DNA from: Acidobacteriota bacterium
GTDB lineage: Bacteria > Acidobacteriota > UBA6911 > RPQK01 > G965218465
Reading direction: 5' to 3'
Assembly: GCA_965218465.1 (NCBI GenBank)
Contig: OZ244623.1
Span: 2,868,097 to 2,932,096, forward strand
DNA: 64,000 bases
Below are positions 4,385 to 43,159 of the stretch, piece by piece. A program made the position numbers and the translations under genes. How positions within the stretch are numbered: the first letter of the stretch is position 1; each line of letters opens with the position of its first letter. The notes beneath the pieces are model-generated. The model was not told where the DNA came from. It searched no databases and was given only the letters and a program-made list of their open reading frames with translations.

Positions 4385-6697
4385 TCAAGGAAGGGAAAGA
4401 CTGTCGAGCAGTCTCCGGGCCGTCACGTCCTGCGGCGCCAAGTCGACCAGTTTACGGGCGAAACGGCGAGCTTCCCCAAGTCGTCCCGCATCCCGGTTGA
4501 TGGTGGCCAAAGCATAGATCAGATCACGATTGGCGGGATGTTTCTGGTGGCAAGTCAACAAAATATCGAGGGCCTGACCGGTATTGCCGGTTGAGTGGAG
4601 CGCCACGCCATAAACATAGCCGTAACGGGGCAGATCGGGTCGCAGCAGGAAAGCTCGCGCCAGGCTGGCGACCGCCTGGTCGGAGCGCCGAAGCCGAACC
4701 AGCAACAGCCCCAGAGCGTGGTGTATGTCGCCATTGTCGGGTTCGATCTCCAAGGCTCGCCGCAGCAACGGCTCGCCTTCCGCATCCCGATCCTGTAGAC
4801 GGTAAAGATCGGCCAGATTGACGTAAGCGGAAACAAAGGTGGGCAGCAATCGCAACGCGACTTCGTACTCGGTTTCGGCCTCCTTCAGCTCACCTCGCCG
4901 GGTGTGGACTAGAGCCAGGTTGAGGTGGGACTCTGCCCGGTCGGCGTTGAACATCTGGGCAGAGCGGTATTCGGTCAGAGCCGCTTCCAGCCGGCCGCGC
5001 TGATTGGAAGTGGTCAAGTTGGCAGGAAGATCCGCCAAGAGACGAGCTGCCTCCTGGCGCACGCTTCCCGCCGGATCGTTGAGCAAGGGCATTCCCAACG
5101 AGGCTCGCCGTCGCGTCGAAGTTCCTTCGAGACTCCTTAGCGCGGCCAAGCGCACCAGCGGATCGTCATCTCTTAGCCCGCGCGGAAGCACGCTCAGCGA
5201 CAACGGGCTCAAATATTGCCCCAGCAGGGAAAAGGCTGTTGCTCGGGCGATAGCCGGGACTTCCTGGTTCTCGGCAACAGCGATCAGTTGCCTCTCGGCA
5301 TCGACCTGCCCCACTCGACCCGCGTGCAGGGCGTAACCGTAGTTGGGCCGGCTAAGCCGTTCGCTCCCGTACCAGTCAGCCACTCTGTCTGCCGCCCACT
5401 CTACCGTTCGGTCGCCGTGGCATCCGTTACAAGCATTGGGTGTCCCGAGTTGGAGCGAGAGATCGGGCCGCGGGACGCGAAAACTGTGATCACGGCGTGG
5501 GTCGACCACCATGTAGTTGCGGGCAGGCATGTGACAATCCACACAATTGGAGCCTTGGCCCGACTCGTGAAAATGGTGTTGCGGGGTGTCGAAGGTATTG
5601 GCCAGATGGCACTGGTTACAAAGTTGATTGCCCGCGAAGAGCAGCTTCCCGCTATGAGAATCATGGCAGTTCTGGCAAGTCACCCCCTGTTCGTGCATCC
5701 GACTCTGGAGAAAAGAGCCGTAAACAAAGACTTCATCCAGAATCTGACCATCGGGGTAATAGAGGCCTTCATCCAACAAAGCCACTTGGTAGGAATCGGC
5801 CAGGGGCTGGCCTGGCCGGTAGTGCTGGAGTTGGGCTCGCCGTGAATGGCAACGACCGCAGATCTCGATTTCGAGGCTGAAGGCGCCGGGTTGGCGGCGC
5901 TGGGCTGTGGCCGCGCCTTCGAAGCTCCAGGCATCGGCGTCTTCCTTCGTCAGGTGGACGAGGAGACCGTTTCCGGTTTGCCAATCACTGATTTCTCCTC
6001 GAGCAGCGGCCCGAGCCCAACTCAGATGGTGGGAAGCCGGTCCGTGGCAGGCCTCGCAGGAGACATCGATCTCGGAGAAAGTGGTTTCGAACCGATCTTG
6101 AGCCGCGTCGTACGATTTGCGCAGGTTGGTGGAGTGACACTCGGCGCACTGATGGTTCCAGTTCTGAAAAGGTCCTGTCCAATGGAGAATATCGCGGTGG
6201 TCGATCGTCTCCCCGGGATAGAGGTGGAACCAGCGTTGACCTCCTTGCACAGCCGGTCGGGTATCCCAGGCAATGCTCAGTGCCTGGTAGCGTCCTCGGG
6301 GAAACTGGATCAGGTATTGCTGCAGCGGCTCCACTCCGAAGGTATACGCAACCGGATAATCGCGTAAGCGGCCATCGGGTCCGTCAGTGCGAACATAATA
6401 TCTTCCCCCCCGTTGGTAGAAGGTGGACGTGACCTCTCCGTAGGTGAACTTTGCCCCGCTGAAATCGCCTAGAACGGTGGCATCGGTGGCCAACTGCATG
6501 GCCAGGTCGTGGTGAGACCCTTGCCACAACTTGGTCTGCTCGAGATGGCACTCGACGCATGACTCCCGGCCCACGTAGACCGGCGTGCTGGTGCTGGTTG
6601 GGGCGGTCCCATCCGAGTTCGAAGACAGCCACAGGAAGAGGATTGCCACCACAGCTACCGCGGCGAGACCAACCACAATCAGGCGCGCATTCTTCAT
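4385..6697 (-). CDS. multihaem (8x CXXCH) c-type cytochrome fused to C-terminal TPR repeats, membrane-anchored
   Basis: Eight CXXCH haem-binding motifs (CVECH, CAECH, CEACH, CGRCH, CQNCH, CNQCH, CVDCH, CNGCH) in the N-terminal two thirds. TPR-like repeats in the C-terminal third (…AESHLNLALVHTRRGELKEAETEYEVALRLLP…). Likely start MKNARLIVVGLAAVAVVAILF (signal anchor) at 6697; the ORF extends to 6751. Confidence 0.75.
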   Translation of the reverse strand: MKNARLIVVGLAAVAVVAILFLWLSSNSDGTAPTSTSTPVYVGRESCVECHLEQTKLWQGSHHDLAMQLATDATVLGDFSGAKFTYGEVTSTFYQRGGRYYVRTDGPDGRLRDYPVAYTFGVEPLQQYLIQFPRGRYQALSIAWDTRPAVQGGQRWFHLYPGETIDHRDILHWTGPFQNWNHQCAECHSTNLRKSYDAAQDRFETTFSEIDVSCEACHGPASHHLSWARAAARGEISDWQTGNGLLVHLTKEDADAWSFEGAATAQRRQPGAFSLEIEICGRCHSRRAQLQHYRPGQPLADSYQVALLDEGLYYPDGQILDEVFVYGSFLQSRMHEQGVTCQNCHDSHSGKLLFAGNQLCNQCHLANTFDTPQHHFHESGQGSNCVDCHMPARNYMVVDPRRDHSFRVPRPDLSLQLGTPNACNGCHGDRTVEWAADRVADWYGSERLSRPNYGYALHAGRVGQVDAERQLIAVAENQEVPAIARATAFSLLGQYLSPLSLSVLPRGLRDDDPLVRLAALRSLEGTSTRRRASLGMPLLNDPAGSVRQEAARLLADLPANLTTSNQRGRLEAALTEYRSAQMFNADRAESHLNLALVHTRRGELKEAETEYEVALRLLPTFVSAYVNLADLYRLQDRDAEGEPLLRRALEIEPDNGDIHHALGLLLVRLRRSDQAVASLARAFLLRPDLPRYGYVYGVALHSTGNTGQALDILLTCHQKHPANRDLIYALATINRDAGRLGEARRFARKLVDLAPQDVTARRLLDSLSLP

Positions 6698-6799
6698 AGG
6701 AGAAATTGTAGAGCAATCTTGGCTGCCCTCGCAGGGCTGTTTTGGGCCCAAAGATGGAATAGATACAGGTCCAAGTCAGAACCCGATGCGAGGAACCCC

Positions 6800-7079
6800 G
6801 ATATGGCGGGGGTAAGCTTGTTTCATCCGGGTGGGCAACAGACCCGATCGCGCTCGATCCCGGTACGCGTCGCCGATAAATCTCCGACTGCCCGTACAGT
6901 GGCACGTGCTTCGCATACTTCGACACCAGCACGTGCGCCAGCAAACCTGTCCCGGCCACGATGTAGTAGACCTCCGAGCCGTTCCCACCCGTCACCTCGT
7001 CCAGGAGCCAGTAGAACGGAATCTCGGCTTCGCAGGAGTAGCGGTTACAAACGAGTTGGCAGCAATCGCCGTTGCTCAT
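6800..7079 (-). CDS. hypothetical small Cys-rich protein (zinc-ribbon-like CCxxxC...C)
   Basis: N-terminal ~90 aa of ORF 6384..7079 reads MSNGDCCQLVCNRYSCEAEIPFYWLLDEVTGGNGSEVYYIVAGTGLL... The rest of that ORF overlaps the cytochrome gene and is probably not coding. True stop unclear. Confidence 0.25.
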
Positions 7080-7269
7080 ACCGGGACATAATGTGAGTTA
7101 AAGTGTGCCTTTAGGAACTGGTCTGACTTATAATGAAGTGATGTCAATTGGCATGGTCATCTCCCCGACAAGATCAATGTCGTGAGCGTTGGTGGCCTCA
7201 ATTTCCCTTGTGCTGTCCCCTTGGTGATAATCCTGTCGCTGGGCACGCTTGACAGGAGGCTTCGCAGGT

Positions 7270-9024
7270 ATGGCGTTTCAGACCGCAATAACGATCAGTA
7301 AGGCACTCGGATCCATCCAACGCCGGGAGTACGTCTTACCAGCGATCCAACGGGAGTTCGTCTGGCAGCCCAACCAGATCAACCGTCTCTTCGACAGCCT
7401 CATGCGAGGGTACCCGATCGGCTCGTTCCTGTTCTGGGTCGCGAAACGCGAAAGTATCGAACAGTACAAGTTCTACGACTTCATGCTCGACTACCACCAG
7501 ATCAACAACCCTCGCTTAGCGTCCGTCGGCGCGGTTGATCGAGACGAGATCACGGCGGTGCTCGACGGACAGCAACGCCTGACGGCCCTGAACATCGGCC
7601 TGCGCGGCAGTTACGCAAACAAGCTGCCGCGCATGTGGTGGGACAACCCGGCCGCGTTTCCCAAGCGGCACCTATACCTTAACATCCTCGCCGAGGCACA
7701 GGAAAACGAGGCGGGCATGCGGTACGACTTCAGTTTTCTCACGCGGCAAGAGGCCGAACATCGGGACGAGACGCACTGCTGGTACGCCGTCGGCGATGTC
7801 TTCAAAGCGAAGAGTGCGGTGGACCTCTTTACCTTCATTCGCAAAAAGGAACTTGGCCATCTAGCCGACCCGTTTGACGTACTAGCTCAACTCCACAAGG
7901 TCGTACACACGGATCCGGTCATTTCGTACTACGAGGAGGAGAGTCAGGACCTCGACAAAGTCTTGGACATCTTTATCCGCACCAACAGCGGTGGCACGAC
8001 GCTGAGCTATTCCGACATGCTCATGAGCATGGCCACGGCGCAATGGAAGAACCTGGATGCCCGCGAGGCGATTCACGGGACAGTTGACCAGATCAACCGA
8101 ATTGGGGACGGCTTCGGGTTTTCCCAGGACTTCCTGCTTAAAGCTGGCCTGATGCTGGCCGGCGTAGGCAGTGTGCGATTCAAAGTCACGAATTTCAACC
8201 GCGAAAACATGAAGCTTCTCGAGGACCGTTGGGATCCTATCACGCGTGCGGTCCGCGTCGCCGTGGAACTGGTAACAAGGTTCGGTTTCTCGCGGGGTAG
8301 TCTCAGTGCGAATAACGCCGTCCTGCCCATCGCGCACTACCTGTATCAACGAGGCACTCCCACTGGATTTTTGTCTCACGCCAAGCATCGCCATGATCGC
8401 AATGCGATCCGTCGCTGGCTGATCCGCTCGCTACTCAAGCGGGGGATCTGGGGCAGCGGTCTCGACTCCCTGCTGACTGCGCTGAGAAGCGTGATCGCCA
8501 CGCACGGTGGCCAAGCGTTTCCAACGGCCCAGGTGGAAACGGCGATGCGAAGGCGAGGAAAGAGCCTGACGTTCGAGGAGGAAGAGCTCAAGGATCTTGT
8601 GGAATCTAAGGACCGCACGTTTGCCCTGCTGTCCCTCTTTTATCCCTTCGTCAATGTTCGGAGTAACAAGTTCCACATCGACCACGTATTTCCGAAGAGC
8701 CGATTCTCCTTCAAACGACTGCGCTCGGTCGGTGTGCCCAAGGACGACATTCGTGTTTTCCAGGATCGCGCCGACCGCCTCCCGAATCTGCAGCTGCTCG
8801 TTGGTGAAGTGAACGAGAACAAGAGCGACACACTGCCGCATCAGTGGATGGCAGAGACCTTTGATGCCCAGGAGGCCACGGAGTACGCCAAGCAGCATGA
8901 CCTTGGCGACGTCCCGGTCGACATCACTGGCTTCACCGCATTCTACAAAGGCCGCCGCGACCGCCTCCTCGGCAGGCTGCGGAAGCTGCTCGGTGCTGAC
9001 GGGCACGAGCTCTCAGCTGAGTAA
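7270..9024 (+). CDS. GmrSD-family type IV (modification-dependent) restriction endonuclease: DUF262 (ParB-like, DGQQR) + DUF1524 (His-Me/HNH-like)
   Basis: N-terminal DUF262 signature (PAIQREFVWQPNQINRLFDSLMRGYPIGSFLFW; DGQQRLTAL). C-terminal DUF1524-type motif (FHIDHVFPKS ... NLQLLVGEVNENK). AGGAGG RBS 10 bp upstream of ATG 7270; the longer ORF starts at TTG 7249. Confidence 0.75.
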   Translation: MAFQTAITISKALGSIQRREYVLPAIQREFVWQPNQINRLFDSLMRGYPIGSFLFWVAKRESIEQYKFYDFMLDYHQINNPRLASVGAVDRDEITAVLDGQQRLTALNIGLRGSYANKLPRMWWDNPAAFPKRHLYLNILAEAQENEAGMRYDFSFLTRQEAEHRDETHCWYAVGDVFKAKSAVDLFTFIRKKELGHLADPFDVLAQLHKVVHTDPVISYYEEESQDLDKVLDIFIRTNSGGTTLSYSDMLMSMATAQWKNLDAREAIHGTVDQINRIGDGFGFSQDFLLKAGLMLAGVGSVRFKVTNFNRENMKLLEDRWDPITRAVRVAVELVTRFGFSRGSLSANNAVLPIAHYLYQRGTPTGFLSHAKHRHDRNAIRRWLIRSLLKRGIWGSGLDSLLTALRSVIATHGGQAFPTAQVETAMRRRGKSLTFEEEELKDLVESKDRTFALLSLFYPFVNVRSNKFHIDHVFPKSRFSFKRLRSVGVPKDDIRVFQDRADRLPNLQLLVGEVNENKSDTLPHQWMAETFDAQEATEYAKQHDLGDVPVDITGFTAFYKGRRDRLLGRLRKLLGADGHELSAE

Positions 9025-10273
9025 CCACAAGACTCCGGAAAAGTCGCGGGTGGTGGATGTAGCCACAGGTTTGGGGCAATTCTGGGGGCATCTTCAAACA
9101 CCGATAGACAGTTTATCCAATAGAATCAACGATTTATTCTCGCTTTAGTGAGGAGGAGCACGACCCCCCGCGGAAGTTGGCATAGGTTTGAAAAATGCTA
9201 ACCCTCCGGCTACCGATCTAGGCATCCAATCAGGGGGCGCTCCCGTTGGCCCAGAGAGCCCCGCCCAGAGGGACCGCTGCTGGTGCCGAGACGCAAGCTC
9301 AAGGCAGACAACTACGTAGGCCAAGAAGGTTAAGTGGATACTATAAGGAAGAGTGTGAGCGCACCGAGGAATGGCTCTCCGGCGCACACAAGAAATTTTA
9401 CGCGATGTGCACTCGCCGGTCGACGGACACTCTCCGATTGACGTTCAAGACTACCCTCCGGGGAGCCAGCCGGAGCGTCCTCTCGCGAAGCCTCCGTCGT
9501 CGCTCCGGGGCTTAAGGTCCGCTGGAGCTCCTTAAACTCGGCGATCCACTTGAGCCCGGCGAGCAGATCCGCATACTCCTCAAACCCTCAACGTTCCCCT
9601 TGAGGGTCGGCTCGATTCAGCCGATCTCACGGCAGTCTTAACGCTGTCAAGAAGGCGGCAGATTGTCACGGGACCGGTGCGGCCTTTGGCTGAGTCTAGT
9701 TAGGTTAGTTAGGTAGGCCTCGCTACAAGAGTAGACCTGTCGTTGTGATCGTATCAGACCAGATACCCAATATGGCCAGGGCAGGGTGTCCCGAAGGTAT
9801 CCCTATGCTTGTTGAGCTTTGTGTCCATTGGTCGAGCTCTTGGGAATCTCTTAGCACAAACCGGGCACTGAACCTTGTAGGGCTTGGGGCTGAGGAAGCG
9901 GGTGCTCTTGGTTTCGAACGTCGTGTCTGTGTCCCTCGCCGAAATAGGGATTCTCCTCTTGGTCACCGGCCTTGGACAGCTCGATCGGATACTGTGGCTG
10001 GAACGAGCGGTCCACATCGTTGGAATCGGCAAAACCCACACGGATAAACGGAGCTCCGAGCGTGCCCTTTTGGGAGAGCGACGCTCAAGTCGGTCGGGGC
10101 GAACCTGGGGACTTCACATTATTGATTCCGCATTGATTCCGCATCTCAATTCCCAAAGGGTGATCGATAGGGTGACAAGAGCCTCAGATACGCAATACAA
10201 ATACAAGTGACAAAATGACTTAGGACAGTTCCAACAGCGGACTGGTCGAAAGCCCTATTTCGACTATCTCCGG

Positions 10274-11149
10274 TTACAACATGCCGATCCACCGGTCGAG
10301 ACCCATTTCTGCACCTTCTCTATCTCGGACGATTACGACGCCGGCCAGATCAGGAGACCTCGAATGGAAGTCGGCAATCATCCCCGGGGCGTCCAATTCC
10401 CTGTTCGGATGTACACGTTCCGCTTCCTGAAATAGGTCCGGTAACTCGGTCGTAGGCTCGAATGGCGGCACAAAATCCAGGTCAGAATCTCCCGCATCTC
10501 TGCCGGTAGCAAACAACCGTGAGAGTGCGTCTGCAGCCGCGCCAGCTGAACCTTTCGCGCCTTGCAGCCCGCTACCCTGGGAGCACAGAAGGCAGTGCAA
10601 AGGCATCGAGTGGTGTCGGTGACAGTCAAAACTCGTGTCAGGCTTCTCATGCTGCACGGCGATCGCCGATGCCAGGGCAATGCCCCAGCTCTCCAGACAG
10701 GACCAACGCAACCCGGCTAGCGTACCGCAGGAGCTGTGTGGAACACGGCTTGCGTCGAACAAATGGTTGTAGAACGCATAAACCGGCGGGAGCCTATAGT
10801 ACCTCGCACTCGCGATGAGCTGGTCCATCTGCTTTTTCTTGTAGAGCGACTGATAGCCGCGGTCGTTGTCGTCTAGGCGCTTCGCCTGCACGAGCATTCC
10901 CTGGCAGTAACGTCCGTCCGGATCTACAAACGCCCAGGCCCAATCCGAACCGATGCGGGCCTCACGGTGTTTGTTAAATGGAACGATCTTTACGTCGCCG
11001 GGGAAGTGCAATTTGAGACCGAGGAGCAGCCCTTCGGTAACCGTCTCCTCGCTAAAGCTCAAGCCGGTGCGCTTGGCCGCGCCGCGACGACGCCATGTAT
11101 CTCTTGACAGTTGCAGAAGGCAGTGTTGCTGCGGCGTAAACGCGTACAT
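10274..11149 (-). CDS. hypothetical protein, possible PD-(D/E)xK-fold nuclease-like
   Basis: 292 aa from MYAFTPQQ... Segment ...KIVPFNKHREARIGSDWAWAFVD...GMLVQAKRL fits a D...(E/Q)xK restriction-endonuclease-like core. No other motif recognised. The 60 codons upstream in the ORF are probably not coding. Confidence 0.4.
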   Translation of the reverse strand: MYAFTPQQHCLLQLSRDTWRRRGAAKRTGLSFSEETVTEGLLLGLKLHFPGDVKIVPFNKHREARIGSDWAWAFVDPDGRYCQGMLVQAKRLDDNDRGYQSLYKKKQMDQLIASARYYRLPPVYAFYNHLFDASRVPHSSCGTLAGLRWSCLESWGIALASAIAVQHEKPDTSFDCHRHHSMPLHCLLCSQGSGLQGAKGSAGAAADALSRLFATGRDAGDSDLDFVPPFEPTTELPDLFQEAERVHPNRELDAPGMIADFHSRSPDLAGVVIVRDREGAEMGLDRWIGML

Positions 11150-11852
11150 TGTGACGTGACTAACCAAGTCTACGGAAATGCTGTTCCATCCGCAACGCGC
11201 CGGGATACGGTGTCCACCTTGAGTGGCGAGCGGCAGGACGCACCTCGGACATCCAAGTATGAAACGGCCACGGACGCATCCGTACAAAATGGCACCGGTA
11301 TTGCGGCCTAGGAGAGTCGTGTCAACGACCATCGCGAATGAGATACTTTCCGTCCGAACTAGGGCCTGCTGGGAACACCCCGCGTACAGCCATGTTGCAG
11401 CATCCGCTCACCTTTCGCTCGCTGCCCCTCAAGAGGGCGTTGTCATGGCGCAAGCGGTGCCCTAGATGGGCGGCGAGGAACGGCGCTTGCCTCCAGGTAT
11501 CCTCCTTCAACTTAGTGCACCCGGACAAGATCTCTCTCGAGCCAGTCGATCAATGGATGGTGTTATTGTCACATAGCTCCGTAGCGCCCGGTCGGGGTCT
11601 TCGCATAAAAAATTGATCGATAGGTTGCACGGGTCGCCGGATTCCCAACGCCGACCGTGAACACCATCGGTCCAACAACGACGAGGTTTCCGATGAGGCC
11701 TCCCACGTGGTCGTCTTGTTCGTCCATGATCCGGCAGAACTCGTGCAGCTCTGCCGGATCCAGATCCGCGGAGTCGTCTCTGCCGGCGAGTCGACTAGTG
11801 ATGCGCCATCGGTCATCCGTGGAGCCTGCGCTCGCTGAAGGCTTTCCAGGAT

Positions 11853-11903
11853 GGGGTTCGTACCGGCCGCTGCCAGGCCAGGACGCCGGCCGGTACGAAC
11901 CCC
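11853..11903. repeat. perfect 17-bp inverted repeat (GGGGTTCGTACCGGCCG / CGGCCGGTACGAACCCC) with 17-nt loop
   Basis: Read directly: 11853-11869 is the exact reverse complement of 11887-11903. No T-tract follows on either strand. Confidence 0.6.
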
Positions 11904-12232
11904 GCAGTGCATCTGGACCTAATTTTCATTGAGGCAAGCACCGGCCCCCTCTTTGCTTGTGTCCTCTGGCCTGGATCCTCCTGTCTACTGTCAGCGCGCG
12001 GTGAGCCCGCCTTGCACGGCGTGCTCCGCCCCCTCCCCGGCCCGGGGTTTCGCGGCGATCGGCATCGACGCCCAGATCGAAGCTCATGCCGCCACCCTCG
12101 AACACAGTCAGGACATAGCTCACCCAGTAGTCCCGTCTGTCCATTCCTGAGGCGCATCCACTCTCCCACCGGGACAACCAGCAGCGTGGTGAATATATTC
12201 CTCCACAGGCTCGTACAGACGGCACTCGGAGA

Positions 12233-12608
12233 TTGAACCGGCCCCTTGTCGCAGTAGCCGTTTCGACCCTCGCGAGTACACCTTGTCGGGCGCGGAGGCT
12301 GGCGAGGAGCTGGACGCATTCCTCGAGCAGCTGGGACCGAGCCGGCCCCGGTCACGGCCGAGCAACTTGCAGCGGCGCGGCGGGCATGTCGGCGCTTCGG
12401 CAAGGGCAAGCATCCGGCGGCTTTGAATTTCGGCGACTGTTTCGCGTATGCGCTCGTCCGGGTAACAGGCGAACCGCTATCGTACGAGGGCGACGACTTG
12501 CTCGCACCGACATCTTGGCGACCGTTCTGCTTCCACATGGGGAGACCGTTTCAGGGGAGTCTCTTCGCCGATCCAGCAAACATGTTTATACTTGGTAGTT
12601 TGATATAA
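12233..12608 (+). pseudogene. VapC-family PIN-domain toxin, frameshifted/decayed
   Basis: Frame 0 (12258-12608) encodes ...PVTAEQLAAARRACRRFGKGKHPAALNFGDCFAYALVRVTGEPLSYEGDDLL..., a textbook VapC C-terminus. The N-terminal PIN half is missing from that frame. A different frame (ORF 12233) gives MNRPLVAVAVSTLAS..., loosely resembling a PIN N-terminus but lacking the first catalytic Asp. No intact antitoxin gene recognised upstream. Confidence 0.45.
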
Positions 12609-12691
12609 GCGACCTAACATGAGGGACATCACGGCCTGGGAGAGCCCCAGGAAATCACCCTCTTGCACCACAATGGAAACGGAGAGCCGAT

Positions 12692-13348
12692 ATGAATCGA
12701 ACCCGATTTGTTTTTGCTGTAATCGCGATGACTGTGCTGGCCTGCGGCACGGCGCTCGCGCAAGACGCGGATCCCCGCATGAGCTTCTTTCTCACCAGCG
12801 CAGGCCCCGGCAACGGCGCCAATCTGGGAGGCCTTGCCGGAGCCGACCGGCACTGCCAGGCGCTGGCCGCCTCCATGGGGAGTGGCAACCGCACCTGGCG
12901 CGCCTATCTCAGCACCAGCGCTTCCGGCGGCCAACCGGCCGTCAACGCGCGTGACCGCATCGGCGACGGGCCCTGGTATAACTCCAAGGGAGTCGCAATC
13001 GCTCAGGATGTCGCTGATCTGCATTCGGAGAACAACAACCTCACCAAGGACACGCAGCTCAACGAAAAGGGCGAGGTGGTCAACGGTCGCGGCGATACTC
13101 CCAACCGGCACGACATCCTGACCGGTTCTCAGTTGGACGGCACGGCTTTTTCAGGCGATACCGATACGACCTGTCAAGATTGGACCAGCAGCGGCGACGG
13201 CAGTGCCCGGGTAGGCCATCATGACCGTACGGGCGGGGGTGAGCATCCTACCTCCTGGAACTCGGCCCATGGCTCCAGAGGCTGTAGTCAAGAGAACTTG
13301 CGCGGTTCGGGAGGCGATGGTCTGTTTTACTGCTTTGCCATCGATTGA
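12692..13348 (+). CDS. secreted protein with endostatin-like (collagen XV/XVIII NC1, C-type-lectin-like fold) domain
   Basis: Signal peptide (MNRTRFVFAVIAMTVLACGTALAQD). Core FFLTSAGPGNGANLGGLAGADRHCQALAASMG...TWRAYLSTS and C-terminal ...YCFAID parallel the human endostatin motifs [28 protein letters not shown]...TFRAFLSS...YIVLCIE, recalled from memory. Confidence 0.5.
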   Translation: MNRTRFVFAVIAMTVLACGTALAQDADPRMSFFLTSAGPGNGANLGGLAGADRHCQALAASMGSGNRTWRAYLSTSASGGQPAVNARDRIGDGPWYNSKGVAIAQDVADLHSENNNLTKDTQLNEKGEVVNGRGDTPNRHDILTGSQLDGTAFSGDTDTTCQDWTSSGDGSARVGHHDRTGGGEHPTSWNSAHGSRGCSQENLRGSGGDGLFYCFAID

Positions 13349-13992
13349 GAGGGCGGAGTAGATCCCCGCATGCGTTGGGGTTGAGCCCGGTGGCCATCTG
13401 GGTATGGCTCGGTCAGAACAACCCGTGCCCGTCCCTCGATCAGCGATTAGCAAGAGGTCCGCAGATTTGCCAGTTCCTTCTCGATCTGGCCCGAGACACG
13501 CTGCGTTACATCCTCTGATCTTCTCCCGCCATCTTCATGTTCCTAGGAAACATGAGAACCCTTGGCGTTCAACCGTTGCTCCGAGCGGGGACCGGCCGAT
13601 GGAGCAGAATGCCCTTGTGACCGACTCCAGCTCATTCCAGCCCTCTTTGCCGTCGGGCGCTGAGGCGTTTGGCGACCGCGCCAAGGACTGGAACGGAGGT
13701 CGTTTTGCAGACACCATTTTGAGAATCAGCTAGGAAAACCAACCATGACCACTTGGGCAAGGCGATCACTTACGGGGCGGCCTTGGATGCTGCTACGATA
13801 GTCTGGATCGCGAGTGACTTCTCCGATGAACACAAGAAAGGTCTGGATTGGCTCAACGATAACAGTTCCGGTGATTGCACGCACGCTCACCCTTCGGCTC
13901 GAAGCAGTCGGCCTCGACATCGCGCTTCTCATCAGCGGCTGTTGAGGCCGACCATGCTGCGGGCCGGCAGTACAGTCAAATCGCGACATCAA

Positions 13993-14706
13993 ATGGCACG
14001 TGTATACAAGTTTCTTCCCCGAAAATGGGCTCTTGACGACATCAAGAAACAGCGCATCAAAATTTCCGGGATTTGTGATCTCAACGACCCTTTCGAGCTG
14101 ATCCCATTCGTTCTCACTTCCAGCAAACACCGACAACAGCTTGTTGATGCGCGCCGGGCCCTGTCTGCCCTTGGCAGGGGTATGTTGTGTTTCTCGTTTA
14201 AGTGGTCGAATCCGGTGTTGTGGGCGCACTACGCTGACAAGCACAAGGGAATTTGTCTCGGTTTCGATGTGCCGGCTGAGTATGCACGGAAGGTTGTATA
14301 CGTGGATACGCGCCAGCCGTTCCCGACGGAGTCGAACGACCAGATCGCTCAGGACTGGATATTCACCAAGTTCTCTGGCTGGCGCTACGAAGAAGAGTGT
14401 CGAATTTACGCGAAGTTAGAACAAGAAGAAAACGGGCATTATTTTGCGGATTTGAAAGAAAATACGATGACGCTTCGTGAGGTCATCCTTGGCTCGGACT
14501 GTCCGGTGGATTTCACCACGATCCGCGAGTTGGTGGAGCCTTACGGTGAGGAAGTCAGAGTGATCAAAGCCCGGCCTTCAGATGAATCTTTCGACATGAT
14601 CGAAACACAGGCGTCCTCTGTGAGTTCCAACCTGCGGCCGCCTGGAGGCAGCACATCTGGGGGGCCTGGGAACCCGGAACGGGATGGCCCGCGTGGTTGG
14701 CAGTAG
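13993..14706 (+). CDS. DUF2971 family protein
   Basis: Starts MARVYKFLPRKWALDDIKKQRIKISGICDLNDPFE, the YKY...L...I...S....NDPFE signature that opens DUF2971 proteins. The ORF is open in-frame from 13753, but the upstream 80 codons look like a different (remnant) sequence. Confidence 0.55.
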   Translation: MARVYKFLPRKWALDDIKKQRIKISGICDLNDPFELIPFVLTSSKHRQQLVDARRALSALGRGMLCFSFKWSNPVLWAHYADKHKGICLGFDVPAEYARKVVYVDTRQPFPTESNDQIAQDWIFTKFSGWRYEEECRIYAKLEQEENGHYFADLKENTMTLREVILGSDCPVDFTTIRELVEPYGEEVRVIKARPSDESFDMIETQASSVSSNLRPPGGSTSGGPGNPERDGPRGWQ

Positions 14707-15202
14707 GAACAGCACGCCTTCTTTGTTTCGGGGCCGTGCTCGATGCGGTAGTTGACCCTAGGTCCAGACTGTATTTGCCACCTGCGTAGGACCGCAAAGA
14801 CCCCCGCTACTCTGACAGTCTATCTAGTGAAGATCGACTACGAAGGCCCCCGGCTTGGCCGACACTCACCTGTTAACCCTGCCCAATTGTGACGTGATCG
14901 CCTGTACCACCTTCGTCGGGGCGCAAAGCTGCAACTATATGGACCTTATAACACACCTTGTCGTTCGGGTACTGGTATTGTCCAGTGTGTTCTTTTTTGG
15001 CCACCCCTCGCAGGCGGCCTACACGTACTTAAACGGTTTCCGGCGGCAGGAGGGTCCAGTCGCAGGGGCTAGGGCAAGTTGATTGCCTGGCCGGTTTTCG
15101 GCTATATTCCCAAGCAGAATAAATCAGCCCCAGTCTGGCCAACTTCCAGATTGGGGCCTTCGTAAGATCCTACCTGCCTACAACAAGGGGAAACGCGCAG
15201 CT

Positions 15203-15520
15203 ATGGCCAAGACACGGGACATTACACCAGAAGACATTGTGAACCGGCTGATGCAATTTATCGTATTCCAACGCGGACAATTGTTGGCAGTCCGGGACAT
15301 CCTAGTGCCGATAATCGAGACCTTGCCGGACGCTCAGCTGCAAAAGTTATTTGAGGAAGTACCCAGAGGAGTGAGCCGCGTAGAAGAGAGCCTACGACAA
15401 GAAGGTCCGATGAGCTCAGACCCCGAAGTGATTGGGGAACTGGGCAGGGGATACGAGGATCTCATGCAGTCGCTATCAGACGCCATTAGTCTTCGGAACC
15501 CCGTCAAAACTGCCGGATAA
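15203..15520 (+). CDS. hypothetical protein
   Basis: 105 aa from MAKTRDITPEDIVNRLMQFIVFQRG...; helical, protein-like composition; no motif recognised. Confidence 0.35.
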   Translation: MAKTRDITPEDIVNRLMQFIVFQRGQLLAVRDILVPIIETLPDAQLQKLFEEVPRGVSRVEESLRQEGPMSSDPEVIGELGRGYEDLMQSLSDAISLRNPVKTAG

Positions 15521-15870
15521 ACTCACTTCATTTTACCAATCTCGCCTGGGCCGCCAGAAGGGGAGGCTCAGCCCCTGGGAGCAGGCTCGTAGGGTCAGGG
15601 GGAAGGAAGGGAGGGGGCAAAGGGATGGTCGTAGATCCAACTGGGAACCGGCACTTCAATGATAGAATCCAGGAGATCACTGTCAGAGAACTATTGGCCG
15701 TTCAGAAACGTCTGCACAGTTCCCATCCGAAGTTCGTGAGGCGCCGGTGGTCCTTCAGTAGGCCGGAGAGAAGGGCACAGTCACGATTTCCAATTCTAAC
15801 TTCTCACGGGGCCACTTGGACCCAGTTCCTCCGAAGTCCAGGTGCCCCTCTTAGCGAGCCACCGCCGGAA

Positions 15871-18048
<2,178 letters not shown>

Positions 18049-19939: not shown

Positions 19940-20797
19940 TCAGTTTGCGGCGCTCCGCTCGGAGAGGAGCCTTTTATCGACGTCGACCAACCAATGCCGA
20001 CGCTTTTCCTGCGGGAGAGTTGTAAAGTGCCTAAGCGCAATCCCGTCGCGAATATCGCCGCAACATCTCACCTCTCCATCGGGAAGGATGGCGATATCGC
20101 CAGAATCATAGGCTGCGTGACAATACGCACACAGACATATCCCGTTTGCGGGATTTGCCCTCTGGCTTTTATCGGATGCATAGCTTCGGATATGGGCAGC
20201 ATCGAGCACGGACGGAAGTTGAGTTCCACAAACTAGGCAGGTGTACTCGTGGCGCGACAGGACTATGGCGCGGAACACGCGCATACGGCTGCGACGTCTC
20301 ACAAGGGACCATGCATCATCCACGTGCCAATCGGCCTCATTCATCTGGACCGCCGGGGCCTTCGCTTGAAAAGCGGAATCCAAAGCTGCGTCGAGGAGAC
20401 GAACAAACAGATCTCGTTCTAATTGAGGCATCGAAATCGACCAGCCGATACTGTTCAAGTCTTTCGGGAGTCCGATTGACAACCGATTATGTCTACCAGG
20501 CTTGGTGCGCGTCGAAAGATCAAATAGTTTCGGAAACCAAACAACGTCCGCAAGATGCGCCGTGAACAGTCGCGTGACCTTCGCGCTTCGCCGTTCTCCT
20601 TCATTGGCCGGCCGTTGCGTCACCTTCGACACGCGTCCAGCTCCGGCCAAACCATATTGCGGGCCACTTTTCTTGAGATAGATAAACTCGTCTCCAGCTT
20701 GTACTTTTACCGAATGAGTATTGTCATAGACATACTGTTTGCCGGGAATGTCGGGGTAACTGCTTTGATCTGAAACCTTGAATATCCAGTAGCTCAT
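19940..20797 (-). CDS. HNH endonuclease with N-terminal PUA/EVE-like putative modified-base reader domain (type IV restriction-like)
   Basis: C-terminal HNH motif (YTCLVCGTQLPSVLDAAHIRSYASDK...NGICLCAYCHAAYDSGDIAI). N-terminus MSYWIFKVSDQSSYPDIPGKQYVYD...GDEFIYLKK...GAGRVSKV resembles the YWLxK/GD..FYH/G.G.V layout of EVE/PUA-like domains, assigned tentatively. The start is 4 bp after the vsr stop. Confidence 0.6.
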   Translation of the reverse strand: MSYWIFKVSDQSSYPDIPGKQYVYDNTHSVKVQAGDEFIYLKKSGPQYGLAGAGRVSKVTQRPANEGERRSAKVTRLFTAHLADVVWFPKLFDLSTRTKPGRHNRLSIGLPKDLNSIGWSISMPQLERDLFVRLLDAALDSAFQAKAPAVQMNEADWHVDDAWSLVRRRSRMRVFRAIVLSRHEYTCLVCGTQLPSVLDAAHIRSYASDKSQRANPANGICLCAYCHAAYDSGDIAILPDGEVRCCGDIRDGIALRHFTTLPQEKRRHWLVDVDKRLLSERSAAN

Positions 20798-20801
20798 CGT
20801 C

Positions 20802-21224
20802 TCACCGGCGAGACTGTCCGGCCCGCTTTCTGACCACTTCTTCGATGCGGTCCACACAGGATTCCGCATCCCGCTCCACCTCATGCTCCCAGATGCGGAT
20901 GACTAACCATCCCTCCCGTCGGAGCTTATTGGAGGTTCGCCGATCCCTGTAGCGGTTGCCCTCGATCTTCTTCCTCCAATAGGGGTCGAGTTTGTGCCTC
21001 CACCGGGAGAACTGCCAACCGTGCCAGAAGTCGCCGTCGACGAATACCGCGACTTTCGCACGTACAAAAACGAGATCAGGCCGTCCTGGAAGTCCGTTCT
21101 TGTGTTTACGGAACCGTAGGCCGCGCGCATGCACAAACCTGCGAATCGTCAGTTCGGGAGTCGTGTCCTTGCTTCGGATGCGGGACATCGTGAAGCTGCG
21201 TTGTTCCGGCGTCAGGTTGTCCAC
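20802..21224 (-). CDS. vsr: very-short-patch repair endonuclease (T:G mismatch nicking, 5mC deamination repair)
   Basis: 140 aa with the Vsr signature KDTTPELTIRRFVHARGLRFRKH...LPGRPDLVF...KVAVFVDGDFWHGW. Confidence 0.8.
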   Translation of the reverse strand: MDNLTPEQRSFTMSRIRSKDTTPELTIRRFVHARGLRFRKHKNGLPGRPDLVFVRAKVAVFVDGDFWHGWQFSRWRHKLDPYWRKKIEGNRYRDRRTSNKLRREGWLVIRIWEHEVERDAESCVDRIEEVVRKRAGQSRR

Positions 21225-21248
21225 TATGCGTCTTCCAGAAACACGCCT

Positions 21249-22415
21249 CTAGCCAGCAGCATCGTCCTGCGGAAGTCTCCAAACGGCAGTCCATGCCTTG
21301 TCAACTCGGATCAACGGCGCGTCCCTGTCCGTCTTCATCTGCCGTCCATGGACTACGCGGACAGCGTCCCCGACGTCGGGCAGATCCATGTCGTCCATTC
21401 TCATCCATTTACTTGGAATCTGCTCGATTGAAACGCGTTGTCCAAACACTGTCCCGGCCTGCCTCGATAGGACCAAAGTCGTGAGCGAGACGCCCTGAAC
21501 CTGTCGGCTCTCTATCTCAGCAATGTTCCCCTCCACGTGTGATCCGCAGTCCGTAGCCCATTCGGGTTGCGCTTCAGTCCAGAATGGACCACAGAATGGC
21601 AGACATGGGCAAAACGAGCAATTGCCGGGAGACGGAGAGGCGAGATCTCGGAAGGAAGCTCCCTCGGAGACCGCGGCATTAAATCTACCAAGCTGTTTCT
21701 TCGCACAGTCGGCCTCGGCCTCGGCCTCGGCCGGCGAAATCGCGAATTCACAGCGCTGTCCGTCACCTCGTACAACCGCACCCGTGCTTACGTCTGTTCC
21801 GTTCTCTGCGGCAATATATGCGTACAGTCGAAGTTGGCGCGCCTCAGAATCGGACACAATACCCCCCTCGGCTTCAGACATATGCCCTGTTTTGTAATCT
21901 ACAACTACGCCGGCCCGGCCGTCGATATAGTCGGCCCGGCCGACGACCCGGCCATCCCTCGAACTAAGACGGGATTCCGTCCTCACTGCTGGAGAAGCTA
22001 ATCTCGCCGCTTCAGCGGCAGAACTGGCCGACGGCATTCGAGACAAAGCGATGGGAGTTGCCGTAAGTGCAGCCCGTTCGCGGTTCAGGTGGTAGAAGGG
22101 CAGGCGGTCCGCAGAGGGGAACTTCAACTTGACCAAGCGGTGGGCGCCCAGATGAAGTTTCTGCGCCGTCTTGTCGAACAGCCGCCTTGCCGGAGAGCGG
22201 TCGCTGACGGCTGCCACCGGGAGCTCCCCTCTATGCGCGGCCGCCACAACCACATGGAAAGCCGTTCCTAGGATCGCCGCCGGGTGCTGAGGCAGAACAC
22301 CGACATCCCCAAAAGCGAACCATGCCGCCTTGGCGAGGCAGTGTATGCTGGCTTCATAGATGCTCGGTGTAATGCGCTTGAGCTGAGCTAGAAGCGGCGG
22401 CTCCGGGACGATCAT
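21249..22415 (-). CDS. RecB-family PD-(D/E)xK nuclease with Cas4-like C-terminal Cys cluster
   Basis: Motifs GRADYIDGRAGVVVDYKTG (motif II/III, hhhDYKTG) and QLRLYAY (QxxxY). C-terminal CSFCPCLPFC is a putative Fe-S/Zn cluster as in Cas4/AddB nucleases. Confidence 0.65.
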   Translation of the reverse strand: MIVPEPPLLAQLKRITPSIYEASIHCLAKAAWFAFGDVGVLPQHPAAILGTAFHVVVAAAHRGELPVAAVSDRSPARRLFDKTAQKLHLGAHRLVKLKFPSADRLPFYHLNRERAALTATPIALSRMPSASSAAEAARLASPAVRTESRLSSRDGRVVGRADYIDGRAGVVVDYKTGHMSEAEGGIVSDSEARQLRLYAYIAAENGTDVSTGAVVRGDGQRCEFAISPAEAEAEADCAKKQLGRFNAAVSEGASFRDLASPSPGNCSFCPCLPFCGPFWTEAQPEWATDCGSHVEGNIAEIESRQVQGVSLTTLVLSRQAGTVFGQRVSIEQIPSKWMRMDDMDLPDVGDAVRVVHGRQMKTDRDAPLIRVDKAWTAVWRLPQDDAAG

Positions 22416-22430
22416 GCTGTCATCAACTCC

Positions 22431-25400
22431 TCATTCATAAGGAAACCGAACAGCACGAAATACTGACCGCAGAGTCACGCTAAAGCCCTGCCCTTGCGCG
22501 TCTGAAACGGCGGCGGCCACCTCCGGGCGGAAGTTGGACGAATCCGTGTCCCAAAGCGGGTGGGTCAGGATAATGGCTTCATTGTTGAATGGATCAACTC
22601 CTCCGGACAATGCATCGAAGGTCCTCGTCTTCATTTGGAGGCCCTCGAAATAGGTCGGAGCAATACGGGCGACAAGATCGGACCAGTGGCTTGTGGTGAG
22701 ATCAATACGGGCGTTAGGATCAAGGGCCAGTTGCGCCATGTCGAGCCCCAACCTCCAGTCGAGTATTGGGTGAAAGGCCATGTTTCCGAATTCACGAAGA
22801 CAGCGGTGGCAAGAATTGACACAGTCATGGCTGTGCGGCGGCGTCACGAGCAGTCGATGAAACGAGTCGGGTGGAGTGCTCCGCGTCCAGGAGGGGCGCG
22901 CCTGCCCTAGGACAAACCGGAGGAGTTCTTCGAAGCGGACGGAGTCTCCTAGGAACGTGCTGTATCCAGCTCCGTTTTCCAGGTTGTCGGAGATGAAGAT
23001 GCGGGCGGTCGGTGGCGCGAACGGCGTGGAGAGGTCGGCAATAGGCTGGATTCCGAGGTCGAGTTCAGAATCATTTACGTCGAGGCTGACTGCGGCGGCC
23101 CGCCGGACAAGGAATCCGAAGGAATACCATGCGGCCTTCGCCTCCGGCTTGGATGGATTCAGGCAGAGTCCCACTGAGACAACGTTGATTCCGGCAGCCA
23201 TGACATCCGTATTGGATATGGCGCCAAGAGCACGCCGGACTCCGGGCGTCGCCGAATCGAACGACGGCCGTTGAATCCGTCCCCGCTCGGCGGCAGGAAG
23301 GTCGCGAAGAGCACTATCGAACGCTTCCTCAACCATCCAGAAATTTTGATTCGCTAGCTTTCGGAATTCGAAGTCGCTCCCATCGTTGTCGTTGATGCGG
23401 TAGATTCTGGCGGAGCCGCTGTCGATGCTGAAGTTTCTGTGAGTCCTGTAGTTGTCCAGCCCAGCCCCCATGCGGGCCCTCAAGGCCCTGGGCGTGAATT
23501 GGAAGCCACCCCGAAACTCGGCGCGGTCGGATATCGTCCACCAAGTGCTGAATCCAGGAGGTTCGGTCAATTCCGCTAGTCGATAGCCGTCCGGTCCGTG
23601 CGCGGCCGAACAATATGGGCACCTACCCGACTGCTCAGGCTGGGTAACCAGGGCCTGGCATCGACGGCATACGCCAACAATCTCTGACTCTCCGAGTGGA
23701 TTCGGCGCCAGGGCGACGCCCCCCATATCGGGGACGAATTCAACCACTCCGACGGCCGTGTGAAGCTTGTCGTCTTTGATTGACTGTGCACCAGGCGCAA
23801 ACTGGCTGATGGCGATGTCAAGTTCGCGGTCGATAATCCCGTACTGAGGAGGCCAGCGGATTGGTTGCTTATGATGCAGGAGGCGCGTTCGCGTCGGGAA
23901 GCCAAACATTGGAAGTACACCGTGGGAGGCCAAACGTTCGCTAAGCGCATGATGCGTGTTGCTGCTGCCGGCGATTTCATCGATCCGGTCGAGCAACTCC
24001 GTTTTGACGTACTGGGTGATGCTCGTAACGCCAGCCGTGTTGTCCATTGCAGTTCGACGCAGAATGTGGTGTCCGATGTCCTCGATAAATAGTCCGTTGA
24101 CAGCAATCCAGTCTGAGACGGTCTGTCGATAACCGGACCACTTCCCGACGGTTCCAAACTCTCCATGAACATTCTCGCCTGAGTGCTCGATCTCGATGCC
24201 TTCAAACGAATGCCGAAGTACTTCTTTGTTGACGACTCGCTGCGCGATTTCCGGCCGCGAAACATCCACATACGGGCGAGGTGGCGGCTCAGCTGTAATT
24301 AGATGAGGCCGTTCAAAATAATAGTCATCGTGGCTGCGGCCCCGGCAGAGCGTCAATGCTGCTGACATTCCAAGACCCCTCCGTCCGGCACGTCCGACCC
24401 TCTGCTGGTAGTTGAAACGGATGGGGGGCATGTTCGCCATGCCGATCATCTGCAGCGATCCGATGTCTACGCCCGCCTCCATGGTTGTAGTGACGCTGAG
24501 GAGGTCCACTCCGAAGGCCTTTTCAAGTTCTCGATCAAGGAAGATCTCCTGGAACCATCTCTGTCGGTCGATGCGGTCGTCACGGTCCGTCTGTCCAGTG
24601 AGTTCCTCGCAGTTGAGGCGAAACGGATCGTCGTTGCATCGAGCCAGGTATTCATAGAAGTCCATTTCGCTGGCGTCCGAAGCCGTGGGATGGCGATGCG
24701 GCGCGTTCGGAAGCCGATTCCGGCAGACCGTACAAATACCGCCGGACGCATGCAGGTGGACGGAACCGCATCTTTGGCAAGAGAAGACATCGATGCACAC
24801 GTCCGTTCCAGGGACGGGGGTCAACACGTAAAGGCGTTGCGGGACAACCAGCCATTGATCCACGGCGTCGCTCAACAGAGTTAGGATGTCCTCCAGCAAT
24901 GTAGCTGCGTCGAGCCCATTGAGATCGGCGACGGCCTGAGCGTACCGGCGGATGTCTCGGGGCGCTTGAAGTCTGCCGTCCGACGCCGGAGTCCAACGGA
25001 ATCTCTTTGCTAGCATTCTGACTATGGAAGCCGCCGCGCACTCCTGCACAGTAGCTGGCCCCGAGTCATTGATCCAAAGGAGCCCAAGCCTCAGCGACTC
25101 GAAGTCACGGCTTCCCCCTGCGAAGAGAACGTCGTTTATGACGGAGCGCAACAACTCGGCTTCAATTCGATCCCGCAACTCCTGCTCAACCGGCTGAAGG
25201 TCCAGCCGATATCTGTGCTGCTCCACGTTCCAGTCGAAGATGTCCGTCCAAGGGATCGTCGTTGTCTGCCACTTATACTCCCTTACGCCTGGCAATGGCC
25301 CACCCGGATTTATCCCGATTCGTAGGAGCGACTCTCGCACGAAATCCACAAGGGCGTTGAACGACATGCTGCCGAAGCCGGTAGGCGGCGAGGGGCGTTG

Positions 25401-27962: not shown

Positions 27963-27978
27963 GGGTCTATTTCACTCG

Positions 27979-28875
27979 TTAGGGCAGGACGGTAACTCCA
28001 GGGTGCGGTTGACCGGCGGCGACCATCAGCAGAGCGGCCACTTCGGGGGTTACATCGAAGTAGACAAACCGTCCGTCAATTAATTGCGCAGGACGGCACG
28101 CACAGAGACATGCGGCTCGGGAATATAGTGCTGGCATCGGTGCGAACAACGGCACACTCAACTCCAGGGAATGAGGCTCGTAATCAATCAGACGAACCCC
28201 CTTCAGCATGGCAGCCGCATAGAGGGACTCCCGCTTGGGCATCCTCAACAGCTTCCCGCTTCTTCTGCGAACGTAGTATTGGGGTCGGCCGTAGGTGGGC
28301 GTAAACTCACACGCCGCATTCGGCAAAAGTCCGTCGACCCACGCGCGTATGCCAAGGTCGAAGAACCGGGCCTTCCAGTTTAACGGGGCTGGTTCCTGAG
28401 CCGCGGCCTCGAATACGCATGGAATGGGAGGAACGTTTTCCGCAATTCGTCTCCCGTTATCAGGTTGATAAGCCACTCCAATGTGGCTGGAGATTTCGGC
28501 AATCACCCGCCTTTCACCAACGACACGGAAGGATGTCGGACAGTCCTTGAGGGCTTCCTCTTGGAGCTTGCCTCCATGCACTTTAGCCCCGTTCCTTAGC
28601 GCCTCGACAAGAGCAGGAGTGCGTCTTCCATAAAGGACGGCAGCATCCGCCTGGGCGGCAAGGCCTCCAAGGACGGGCGGCAGCATGTTCCACCGCTGAG
28701 AACCATCTACAAAAAAATCGGTGAAGCCGAGATCCGACAAACCAACTCTCAGTGCGCGGGACAACTCCAGCGGATCACGATCTCCACTTACAATCTCCTC
28801 AGCCGCCTTTCGAAACCTTATCCATGACCCCTCTCCCAAGTGGGTCATCCATGTCAGTAACAGATCGCAGTTCAT
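27979..28875 (-). CDS. hypothetical protein (positionally DruG-like)
   Basis: 298 aa with no recognisable motif. Its start overlaps the upstream gene's stop by ATGA (translational coupling). A 17-bp gap separates it from the helicase gene. Confidence 0.5.
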   Translation of the reverse strand: MNCDLLLTWMTHLGEGSWIRFRKAAEEIVSGDRDPLELSRALRVGLSDLGFTDFFVDGSQRWNMLPPVLGGLAAQADAAVLYGRRTPALVEALRNGAKVHGGKLQEEALKDCPTSFRVVGERRVIAEISSHIGVAYQPDNGRRIAENVPPIPCVFEAAAQEPAPLNWKARFFDLGIRAWVDGLLPNAACEFTPTYGRPQYYVRRRSGKLLRMPKRESLYAAAMLKGVRLIDYEPHSLELSVPLFAPMPALYSRAACLCACRPAQLIDGRFVYFDVTPEVAALLMVAAGQPHPGVTVLP

Positions 28876-43080: not shown

Positions 43081-43159
43081 GAATATAGAAGGTGACCGGG
43101 TCGAGGAGGCACAGCCCTCGAAAGACCGGACCTCTGTTTCAAGTGCGAAGGGAAAAACA

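Follow-up and report, generated by a model that had tools for sequence, protein, structure and literature searches.

In a 64,000-nucleotide stretch of DNA (the window) from an uncultured environmental Acidobacteriota bacterium (contig OZ244623.1 of assembly GCA_965218465.1, positions 2,868,097–2,932,096), we characterized a forward-strand open reading frame (ORF; 12692–13348) whose product is almost certainly a secreted homologue of endostatin that shares its fold. The protein is a true but distant homologue of collagen XV/XVIII endostatin and of the Leptospira Len/DUF1554 proteins. An earlier note on this DNA had proposed the endostatin homology from the letters alone, and profile searches, profile–profile alignment and the predicted fold now bear it out. 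For the full proposal, in which a secreted endostatin-fold protein also has a lectin-like role, we estimate a probability of about 0.5.

Endostatin homology and predicted fold

The endostatin signal strengthened as evolutionary information was added, from the single sequence through 24 close homologues to 71 sequences. The window protein alone gave no match in the Protein Data Bank (PDB) with phmmer. Its best Pfam match was DUF1554 (PF07588; 22.8 bits, E = 8.5e-5, residues 43–77 only; below the gathering cut-off of 27.5), and Pfam Endostatin (PF06482) scored 15.8 bits (E = 0.011; below the cut-off of 29.4). Weak NCBIfam matches to the Leptospira models NF047482 (LenA/B; 18.0 bits) and NF047483 (LenF; 16.1 bits) spanned nearly the whole domain, far below the cut-offs of 300 and 400. 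With a profile built from the 24 homologues, three collagen XVIII endostatin chains came out on top of the PDB search (E = 1.2e-3). With the broad profile (71 sequences, 46–95% identical to the window protein by alignment), hmmsearch returned 1koe and 1dy0 at E = 1.5e-7, 1bnl at 1.8e-5 and 1dy2 at 6e-3; four of the top five matches were mouse or human collagen XVIII or collagen XV endostatins. Endostatins are the only credible PDB matches of the profile and give statistically supported homology at the profile level; matches to NapH3, uS10m and gp120 were dismissed as noise, as was an NCBIfam ‘alkaline phosphatase PhoY’ match (E = 0.003, 60 residues; PhoY is a PhoK-type phosphatase). For endostatin itself, we took Pfam PF06482 and PDB entries 1KOE, 1BNL and 1DY0–1DY2 to be the appropriate comparators. 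Direct alignment of the family with human endostatin by hhalign gave a probability of 93.2% (E = 2.8e-7, 122 columns); the human sequence used agrees with the 1bnl alignment from the PDB profile search.

Comparison with Pfam Endostatin, which the earlier note had advised, came out in favour of its proposal, if weakly for the single sequence: the window protein stays below the cut-off, and 32 of the 71 family members match the model at E ≤ 0.01 and one relative (P0172) exceeds both curated cut-offs, with an Endostatin score of 32.5 bits. DUF1554 is matched by 61 of the 71 at the same threshold, with its cut-off exceeded by P0153, P0162, P0172, P0132 and P0186, and no other family recurred. Two of the three sequence blocks that had been paired with endostatin by eye, GADRHCQALAASMG with its counterpart and TWRAYLSTS with TFRAFLSSR, were reproduced by the statistical alignments. 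The third (YCFAID with YIVLCIE) was not: neither hmmalign nor MAFFT succeeded in matching the last 50 residues with endostatin, owing to a longer loop that separates the final strands of the bacterial protein (residues 177–197). This pairing is supported only indirectly, by the structural superposition, which covers 150 of 168 endostatin residues.

Structure prediction with AlphaFold2 from the 71-sequence alignment yielded a model with a predicted local distance difference test score (pLDDT) of 92.9 and a predicted template modelling score of 0.87; it supersedes an earlier model from the 24 close homologues (pLDDT 58, C-terminal half unusable). A Foldseek search of the PDB with this model returned only five entries, all endostatins (template modelling scores of 0.63–0.69), so that the structural check named in the earlier note points to an endostatin-like rather than an unrelated fold; the viral structure database BFVD gave no match. 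The model thus has the endostatin-type variant of the C-type-lectin fold, and its similarity to canonical C-type-lectin-like domains, including the C-terminal domain of Legionella Lcl (PDB 8Q4E), is far weaker than that to endostatin. It lacks the combination of EPN/QPD and WND motifs with a close Lectin_C fold match that marks a canonical Ca2+-dependent carbohydrate-recognition domain, and no match to Lectin_C or DUF1566 was found at the sequence level.

Sequence motifs and cysteines are consistent with this fold. The G-A-D-x-x-C motif of helix alpha1 (residues 50–61; 12839–12874), which profile alignments indicate is common to endostatin, lies within a modelled helix at residues 47–61, and A-R-D-R-I-G-x-G-P-W-x-N (residues 86–97; 12947–12982), the most conserved motif of the family, aligns with endostatin RADR..P..N. 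The earlier note had judged the cysteines to be appropriately placed, which alignment supports for two of the four: Cys55 (12854–12856; invariant in 71/71) and Cys161 (13172–13174; 70/71) align with endostatin Cys33 and Cys135. The other two, Cys198 (13283–13285) and Cys214 (13331–13333; in the C-terminal Y-C-F strand, residues 213–216 of the model), are invariant in all 71 sequences and not alignable by sequence; considering the fold, they are presumed to be equivalent to Cys165 and Cys173. Endostatin disulfides are nested (C1–C4 and C2–C3), and by analogy the predicted pairs are Cys55–Cys214 and Cys161–Cys198.

The gene has an ATG start, 218 codons and a stop codon at 13346–13348 on the forward strand, and a Shine–Dalgarno-like GGAGAG can be read 5 nt before the start (12681–12686). 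The ORF is a real gene: the GC content of its third codon positions is 0.70 and the ratio of non-synonymous to synonymous substitution rates (dN/dS) is 0.12–0.23 against six relatives (73–96% amino-acid identity); it is under purifying selection. The exact protein was absent from the public gene index, no second copy of the gene was found in the window and Rfam gave no match at gathering thresholds. An antisense ORF of 160 codons (12629–13111) was rejected as a shadow ORF of GC-rich DNA that recurs wherever the gene occurs. The clear signal peptide described in the earlier note has support in the sequence: inspection of the sequence by eye, without a predictor, identified the positive n-region, hydrophobic core and A-x-A site of a Sec/signal peptidase I (SPase I) substrate in the N-terminus MNRTRFVFAVIAMTVLACGTALA, which is followed by QDADPR. 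The predicted signal peptide comprises residues 1–23 (12692–12760), with probable cleavage after Ala23 (between ALA and QD), leaving a mature protein of residues 24–218 (12761–13345) with an endostatin-type C-type-lectin-like domain at approximately residues 30–218. The N-termini of the family are variable and hydrophobic, and the signal segment is the sole low-confidence part of the final model (pLDDT 51–58, as against >94 in each 10-residue block from residue 31 onward).

Family distribution and conserved residues

The family is very large and strongly conserved. All 8,000 scored candidates passed in an index of 5.8 billion proteins (that is, at least 8,000 homologues), the top 120 of which are at least 72% identical and approximately 218 residues long, and an exhaustive hidden Markov model search of 1.84 billion 50%-identity representatives found 5,313 clusters at E ≤ 1e-3, of which 2,790 reach E ≤ 1e-10 and at least 800 reach E ≤ 1e-30. 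Among the pattern matches listed for GTDB species genomes, at least 589 (589/600) encode a relative; the hosts among the matches listed are Acidobacteriota, Gemmatimonadota, Alpha-, Beta- and Gammaproteobacteria, Rhodothermales, Latescibacterota, Fibrobacterota and Acidimicrobiia, with 60–78% identity. The family therefore spans at least eight phyla, which are free-living phyla of soil, sediment and marine habitats, and cultured hosts include Bradyrhizobium and Pseudohongiella, with homologues WP_092228123.1 in Bradyrhizobium sp. Gha and WP_237133086.1 in Pseudohongiella sp. O18. Public names of the homologues are ‘hypothetical protein’ or ‘lectin’ (one is named ‘lectin’ in RefSeq), and precomputed tags for PF06482 or PF07588 exist for a small number of members. 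Matrix-biology literature treats the endostatin domain as a metazoan invention of the extracellular matrix (ECM), and the domain has been counted among those exclusive to ECM proteins within the human proteome (PMC4224354). The earlier note saw a bacterial copy as an unusual, eukaryote-like domain; this view does not hold, given the size of the family, its many phyla, its partial tagging and the precedent of the Len proteins. Bacterial endostatin-like proteins are therefore a kind already known. What the window protein represents is a very large, uncharacterised environmental subfamily that lies between Endostatin and DUF1554 in Pfam and merits a separate model; our literature search found no paper on bacterial endostatin-domain proteins outside Leptospira. 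In genome annotation, ‘secreted endostatin-like (DUF1554-related) domain protein’ can take the place of ‘hypothetical protein’.

The residues on which endostatin relies for zinc and heparin are absent from the window protein. We take the endostatin Zn ligands to be His1, His3, His11 and Asp76 (1BNL); in the hhalign mapping, Asp76 is replaced by an invariant Gly100 and the His1/His3/His11 segment has no counterpart. The heparin-binding arginines known from endostatin mutagenesis, R24, R27, R53, R62, R63 and R139, correspond to G46, A49, S76, N85, A86 and T165. The mature protein is also acidic (isoelectric point (pI) 5.4, net charge −7; family median pI 6.2), whereas endostatin has a pI of approximately 9.3. 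An endostatin-like or Len-like mechanism of binding polyanions or ECM is unlikely, since the Zn and heparin residues are missing and the protein is acidic. The setting differs too: unlike the NC1 domains of collagens XVIII and XV, the window protein is a stand-alone chain of 218 residues behind a signal peptide, with no collagen, trimerisation domain or hinge upstream.

The bacterial family instead has a conserved His/Glu/Asp/Trp-Asn set of its own. Ten polar positions are near-invariant (H111, E125, H140, D141, H176, D178, R179, W189, N190 and H193), and H111, E125, H140, H176 and W189–N190 are retained in members with less than 50% identity. His111 (13022–13024) is found in 66/71 sequences and Glu125 (13064–13066) in 69/71, each in 16 of the 18 divergent members, where endostatin has Phe87 and Phe103, respectively. 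His140-Asp141 (13109–13114; 68/71 and 66/71), at the start of the central strand, take the place of endostatin Lys117-Ser118. At the end of strand 172–176 is His176-His177-Asp178-Arg179 (G-H-x-D-R; 13217–13228; H176 66/71, D178 64/71, R179 68/71), and just before Cys198 is Trp189-Asn190-Ser-Ala-His193 (13256–13270; W189 69/71, N190 61/71, H193 66/71). These polar residues are probably clustered in space. The combination of three histidines with one carboxylate hints at a metal site; the W-N motif before the third cysteine may recall, by analogy, the WND strand of C-type lectins. The His/Glu/Trp-Asn site is thus a candidate functional centre that can be tested.

Relatives carry the domain in a range of architectures: in tandem copies, in fusions with GH5 cellulase (three representatives), subtilase S8, a dienelactone-hydrolase-like alpha/beta-hydrolase or DUF6152, and together with type IX secretion system (T9SS) sorting domains. 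Two giant relatives, P0121 (6,876 residues) and P0123 (6,506 residues), have three endostatin-like domains each, near both chain ends, and look like very long surface adhesins; in P0121, the N-terminal endostatin-like domain is followed by a long array of approximately 95-residue repeats with a weak Pfam fn3_6 match. The domain therefore behaves like a portable extracellular module. In the DUF6152 fusions P0142 and P0173, the predicted mature N-terminus of DUF6152 begins with His-His (AHHSF), speculatively reminiscent of N-terminal histidine metal sites.

Gene neighbourhoods vary by lineage. In one, a BNR/sialidase-like gene overlaps the endostatin-like gene, with sulfatase and UxuA-like genes nearby; in two others, PSCyt/PSD1–DUF1501 pairs occur with rhaM (rhamnose mutarotase) or a glucosamine-6-P-isomerase-like gene and an SSF symporter. 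No function is known for PSCyt genes, which are linked to carbohydrate and sulfatase contexts (PMC5615132). NHL-repeat and pyrroloquinoline quinone (PQQ)-dehydrogenase genes adjoin in Gemmatimonadota loci, and in two lineages a URO-D-like gene ends 69 bp upstream. This last linkage is recurrent and tight (loci L092/L093, L095/L096 and L087–L089), with PSCyt1/PSCyt2/PSD1–DUF1501 pairs on either side.

Possible function and alternatives

In the mechanism that we propose, the stand-alone gene, with its own ribosome-binding site, would yield a protein that is exported by the Sec pathway, cleaved after Ala23 and folded outside the cytoplasm into an endostatin-type C-type-lectin-like domain with two disulfides (Cys55–Cys214 and Cys161–Cys198). 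Its role would be to bind a ligand rather than to catalyse a reaction: as a lectin-like module, soluble in the periplasm or outside the cell, it would recognise a carbohydrate or glycan. Binding would involve the polar cluster (His111, Glu125, His140/Asp141, His176/Asp178/Arg179, Trp189–Asn190 and His193), possibly around a metal ion, and endostatin's basic heparin-binding surface would not be used. A place of action outside the cytoplasm is suggested by the signal peptide and by the T9SS domains of relatives. We favour a soluble lectin-like role because of the portable-module architectures and the sugar- or glycan-related neighbours in several lineages, although fusions and neighbours point only weakly to such ligands; sugar or glycan binding, possibly metal-assisted, is a tentative assignment that we rate at somewhat below even odds.

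Several observations weigh against this proposal. The EPN/QPD sugar-binding motif is absent from the window protein. A search of 81 loci revealed no universal operon partner (the commonest neighbour occurs in at most 13 of the 81), the gene stands alone between unrelated genes in both the window and the closest relative, and some of the fusions may be gene-calling artefacts in metagenomes. A simple scan at the gene for a sigma-70 promoter or an intrinsic terminator found neither. In one genome pair, the endostatin-like proteins are 78% identical, compared with 70% for DAHP synthase, and identity across phyla is 60–85%; so high a level is unusual in carbohydrate-binding modules and would be more in keeping with an enzyme or a fixed protein partner. 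Three histidines with a carboxylate are, moreover, typical of catalytic metal centres as well.

These last two points also form the case for a secreted metalloenzyme on an endostatin scaffold, in which His111, Glu125, His140 and His176 would hold a metal for catalysis on a small substrate in the periplasm, such as a sugar derivative. Its main argument is cross-phylum conservation that rivals that of a housekeeping enzyme; the three histidines and one glutamate are near-invariant even below 50% identity, and enzymes of sugar or oxidative metabolism are frequently encoded nearby (PQQ dehydrogenase, URO-D-like and DUF1501 genes, and KatG in the window). We nevertheless consider such an enzyme unlikely, at about one chance in five. 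Less probable still, and the other main rival, is a periplasmic protein that binds or buffers metal (a metallochaperone or the partner of a metal sensor) with no glycan role. The conserved His-rich set, the His-His N-termini of the two DUF6152 fusions, and the KatG and multihaem cytochrome genes near the window gene are compatible with it, as is a HupE/UreJ_2 metal-transporter-like gene near the endostatin-like gene in a subset of Gemmatimonadota loci. However, the HupE link is seen in only about 9 of 81 loci, from related lineages, and may be inherited synteny; GH5, S8 and T9SS fusions would be unexpected for a metallochaperone, and no metal-trafficking family was matched.

The Len proteins of Leptospira were described as endostatin-like in 2007 (PMC2063517) from PHYRE models in which endostatin served as the model for the LenA–F domain (PMC2063517, PMC2387172). 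Their host ligands are laminin, fibronectin and factor H (PMC2063517). Like them, the window protein is bacterial, appears to be exported and has an endostatin-related domain, with tandem-domain versions in both groups, and its weak matches to the LenA/B and LenF models cover nearly the whole domain. A Len-like adhesin or eukaryote mimic, with an animal-derived domain that binds host ECM, heparan sulfate or complement regulators, is nonetheless very improbable. Len proteins are lipoproteins confined to pathogenic Leptospira, whereas the window protein has an SPase I-type signal and no lipobox (V-L-A-C19 does not fit, and Cys19 is not conserved, being Ser in P0005 and P0012), and its Len scores of 18 and 16 bits are a small fraction of the cut-offs. 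The free-living hosts, the acidic charge, and the loss of all six heparin-binding arginines (0/6 kept) and of the Zn ligand Asp76 also speak against it, and the size and depth of the family (down to 37% identity, with many architectures) argue against a recent animal origin. That the resemblance to endostatin reflects chance or convergence on a C-type-lectin scaffold, as single-sequence matches below curated thresholds and the unalignable C-terminal 50 residues might hint, we regard as negligible.

A broader reading, which we put forward as speculative and rather unlikely, is that animal endostatin is an offshoot of an ancient, very large bacterial family of secreted proteins whose metal-assisted His/Glu site, which the animal domain lacks, binds a sugar or small ligand. 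Restricting the profile to the bacterial members that diverge most did not bring it nearer to endostatin (E = 2e-4) than the broad profile, and so gives no evidence on the direction of descent. If the reading is right, the animal domain descends from a bacterial ancestor and the bacterial family has a conserved biochemical role in environmental bacteria. Endostatin has been studied intensively as an anti-angiogenic fragment. Free-living bacteria from at least eight phyla, cultured Bradyrhizobium and Pseudohongiella among them, commonly have a close structural homologue of it that is under strong conservation, and they give a tractable setting in which to ask about the activity of the ancestral endostatin fold. 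The protein is not a new kind of system, and its function is one that we infer.

Genomic surroundings in the window

A blastn comparison of the window with the locus of the closest relative (L081) delimits a conserved block of 96% nucleotide identity (12487–13404) that comprises the endostatin-like gene, approximately 205 bp upstream and 56 bp downstream. Both flanks of the block are strain-specific, the extra DNA of the window being 6800–12487 and 13404–15761; in L081, the block sits between a gene for a multihaem cytochrome c with TPR repeats and katG. The endostatin-like gene is core, outside the islands, because it is conserved in L081, which has no flanking insertions. PADLOC gave no match for the endostatin-like protein, though defence genes lie on both sides. 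The corresponding core neighbours in the window, both on the reverse strand, are a 788-residue multihaem cytochrome c fused to TPR/HEAT repeats (4385–6751) and a KatG-type catalase-peroxidase (15871–18003). A housekeeping DAHP synthase encoded in the window has a single match at 99% identity, after which identity falls to 72–73%, and the nearest named matches, from Acidobacteriota, are 71% identical; the lineage is sparsely sampled and, tentatively, allied to the Acidobacteriota.

Directly upstream of the block, a 5.7-kb strain-specific segment (6800–12487) resembles a defence-island insertion and replaces 1.7 kb in L081. It contains a GmrSD-like ORF (7249–9024) that matches the PADLOC candidate HEC-05 (738 bits) and a DUF6615 ORF (10274–11332), followed by approximately 1.15 kb of GC-rich DNA (0.60–0.65; 11333–12486) with no credible ORF; a 241-codon ORF at 11813–12538 is rich in Arg, Pro and Ala and has no Pfam match. 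Within this region, a perfect 17-nt inverted repeat with a 17-nt loop (11853–11903) is not repeated elsewhere in the window, and Rfam gave a sub-threshold miRNA-like match to the hairpin on both strands. Downstream, a 2.36-kb strain-specific insertion (13404–15761) stands where the relative has 138 bp. Its DUF2971 ORF (13753–14706) matches PADLOC PDC-S31, and its first 40 residues match another candidate, PDC-S11; the ORF may be a fusion or a remnant, or its start may be mis-set. A further ORF of 145 codons (15083–15520) has no matches.

Farther along the window, a Druantia-like defence operon occupies 19940–33969 on the reverse strand, with an HNH endonuclease (19940–20884), a DruK-like PD-(D/E)XK nuclease (21249–22415), a DruE4 helicase of 1,843 residues (22431–27962; 1,779 bits), DruL4-like (27979–28875) and DruF-like (28872–31919) ORFs, and a C5 cytosine methylase of the DruM2/MTase_II type (31864–33969). 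Type I-G CRISPR–Cas genes (Csb1/Cas7g, 58969–60162; Csb2, 60078–61577) are also present; Tandem Repeats Finder detected no repeat array in the window, so any CRISPR array lies outside it or was missed. A corrinoid-dependent methyltransferase pair on the forward strand (42037–43951) consists of a methyltetrahydrofolate:corrinoid methyltransferase-like ORF and an MtgC/MtbC-like corrinoid protein, with no cobalamin riboswitch found by Rfam, and is followed on the same strand by AddB/AddA-like helicase-nuclease genes (44522–51258).

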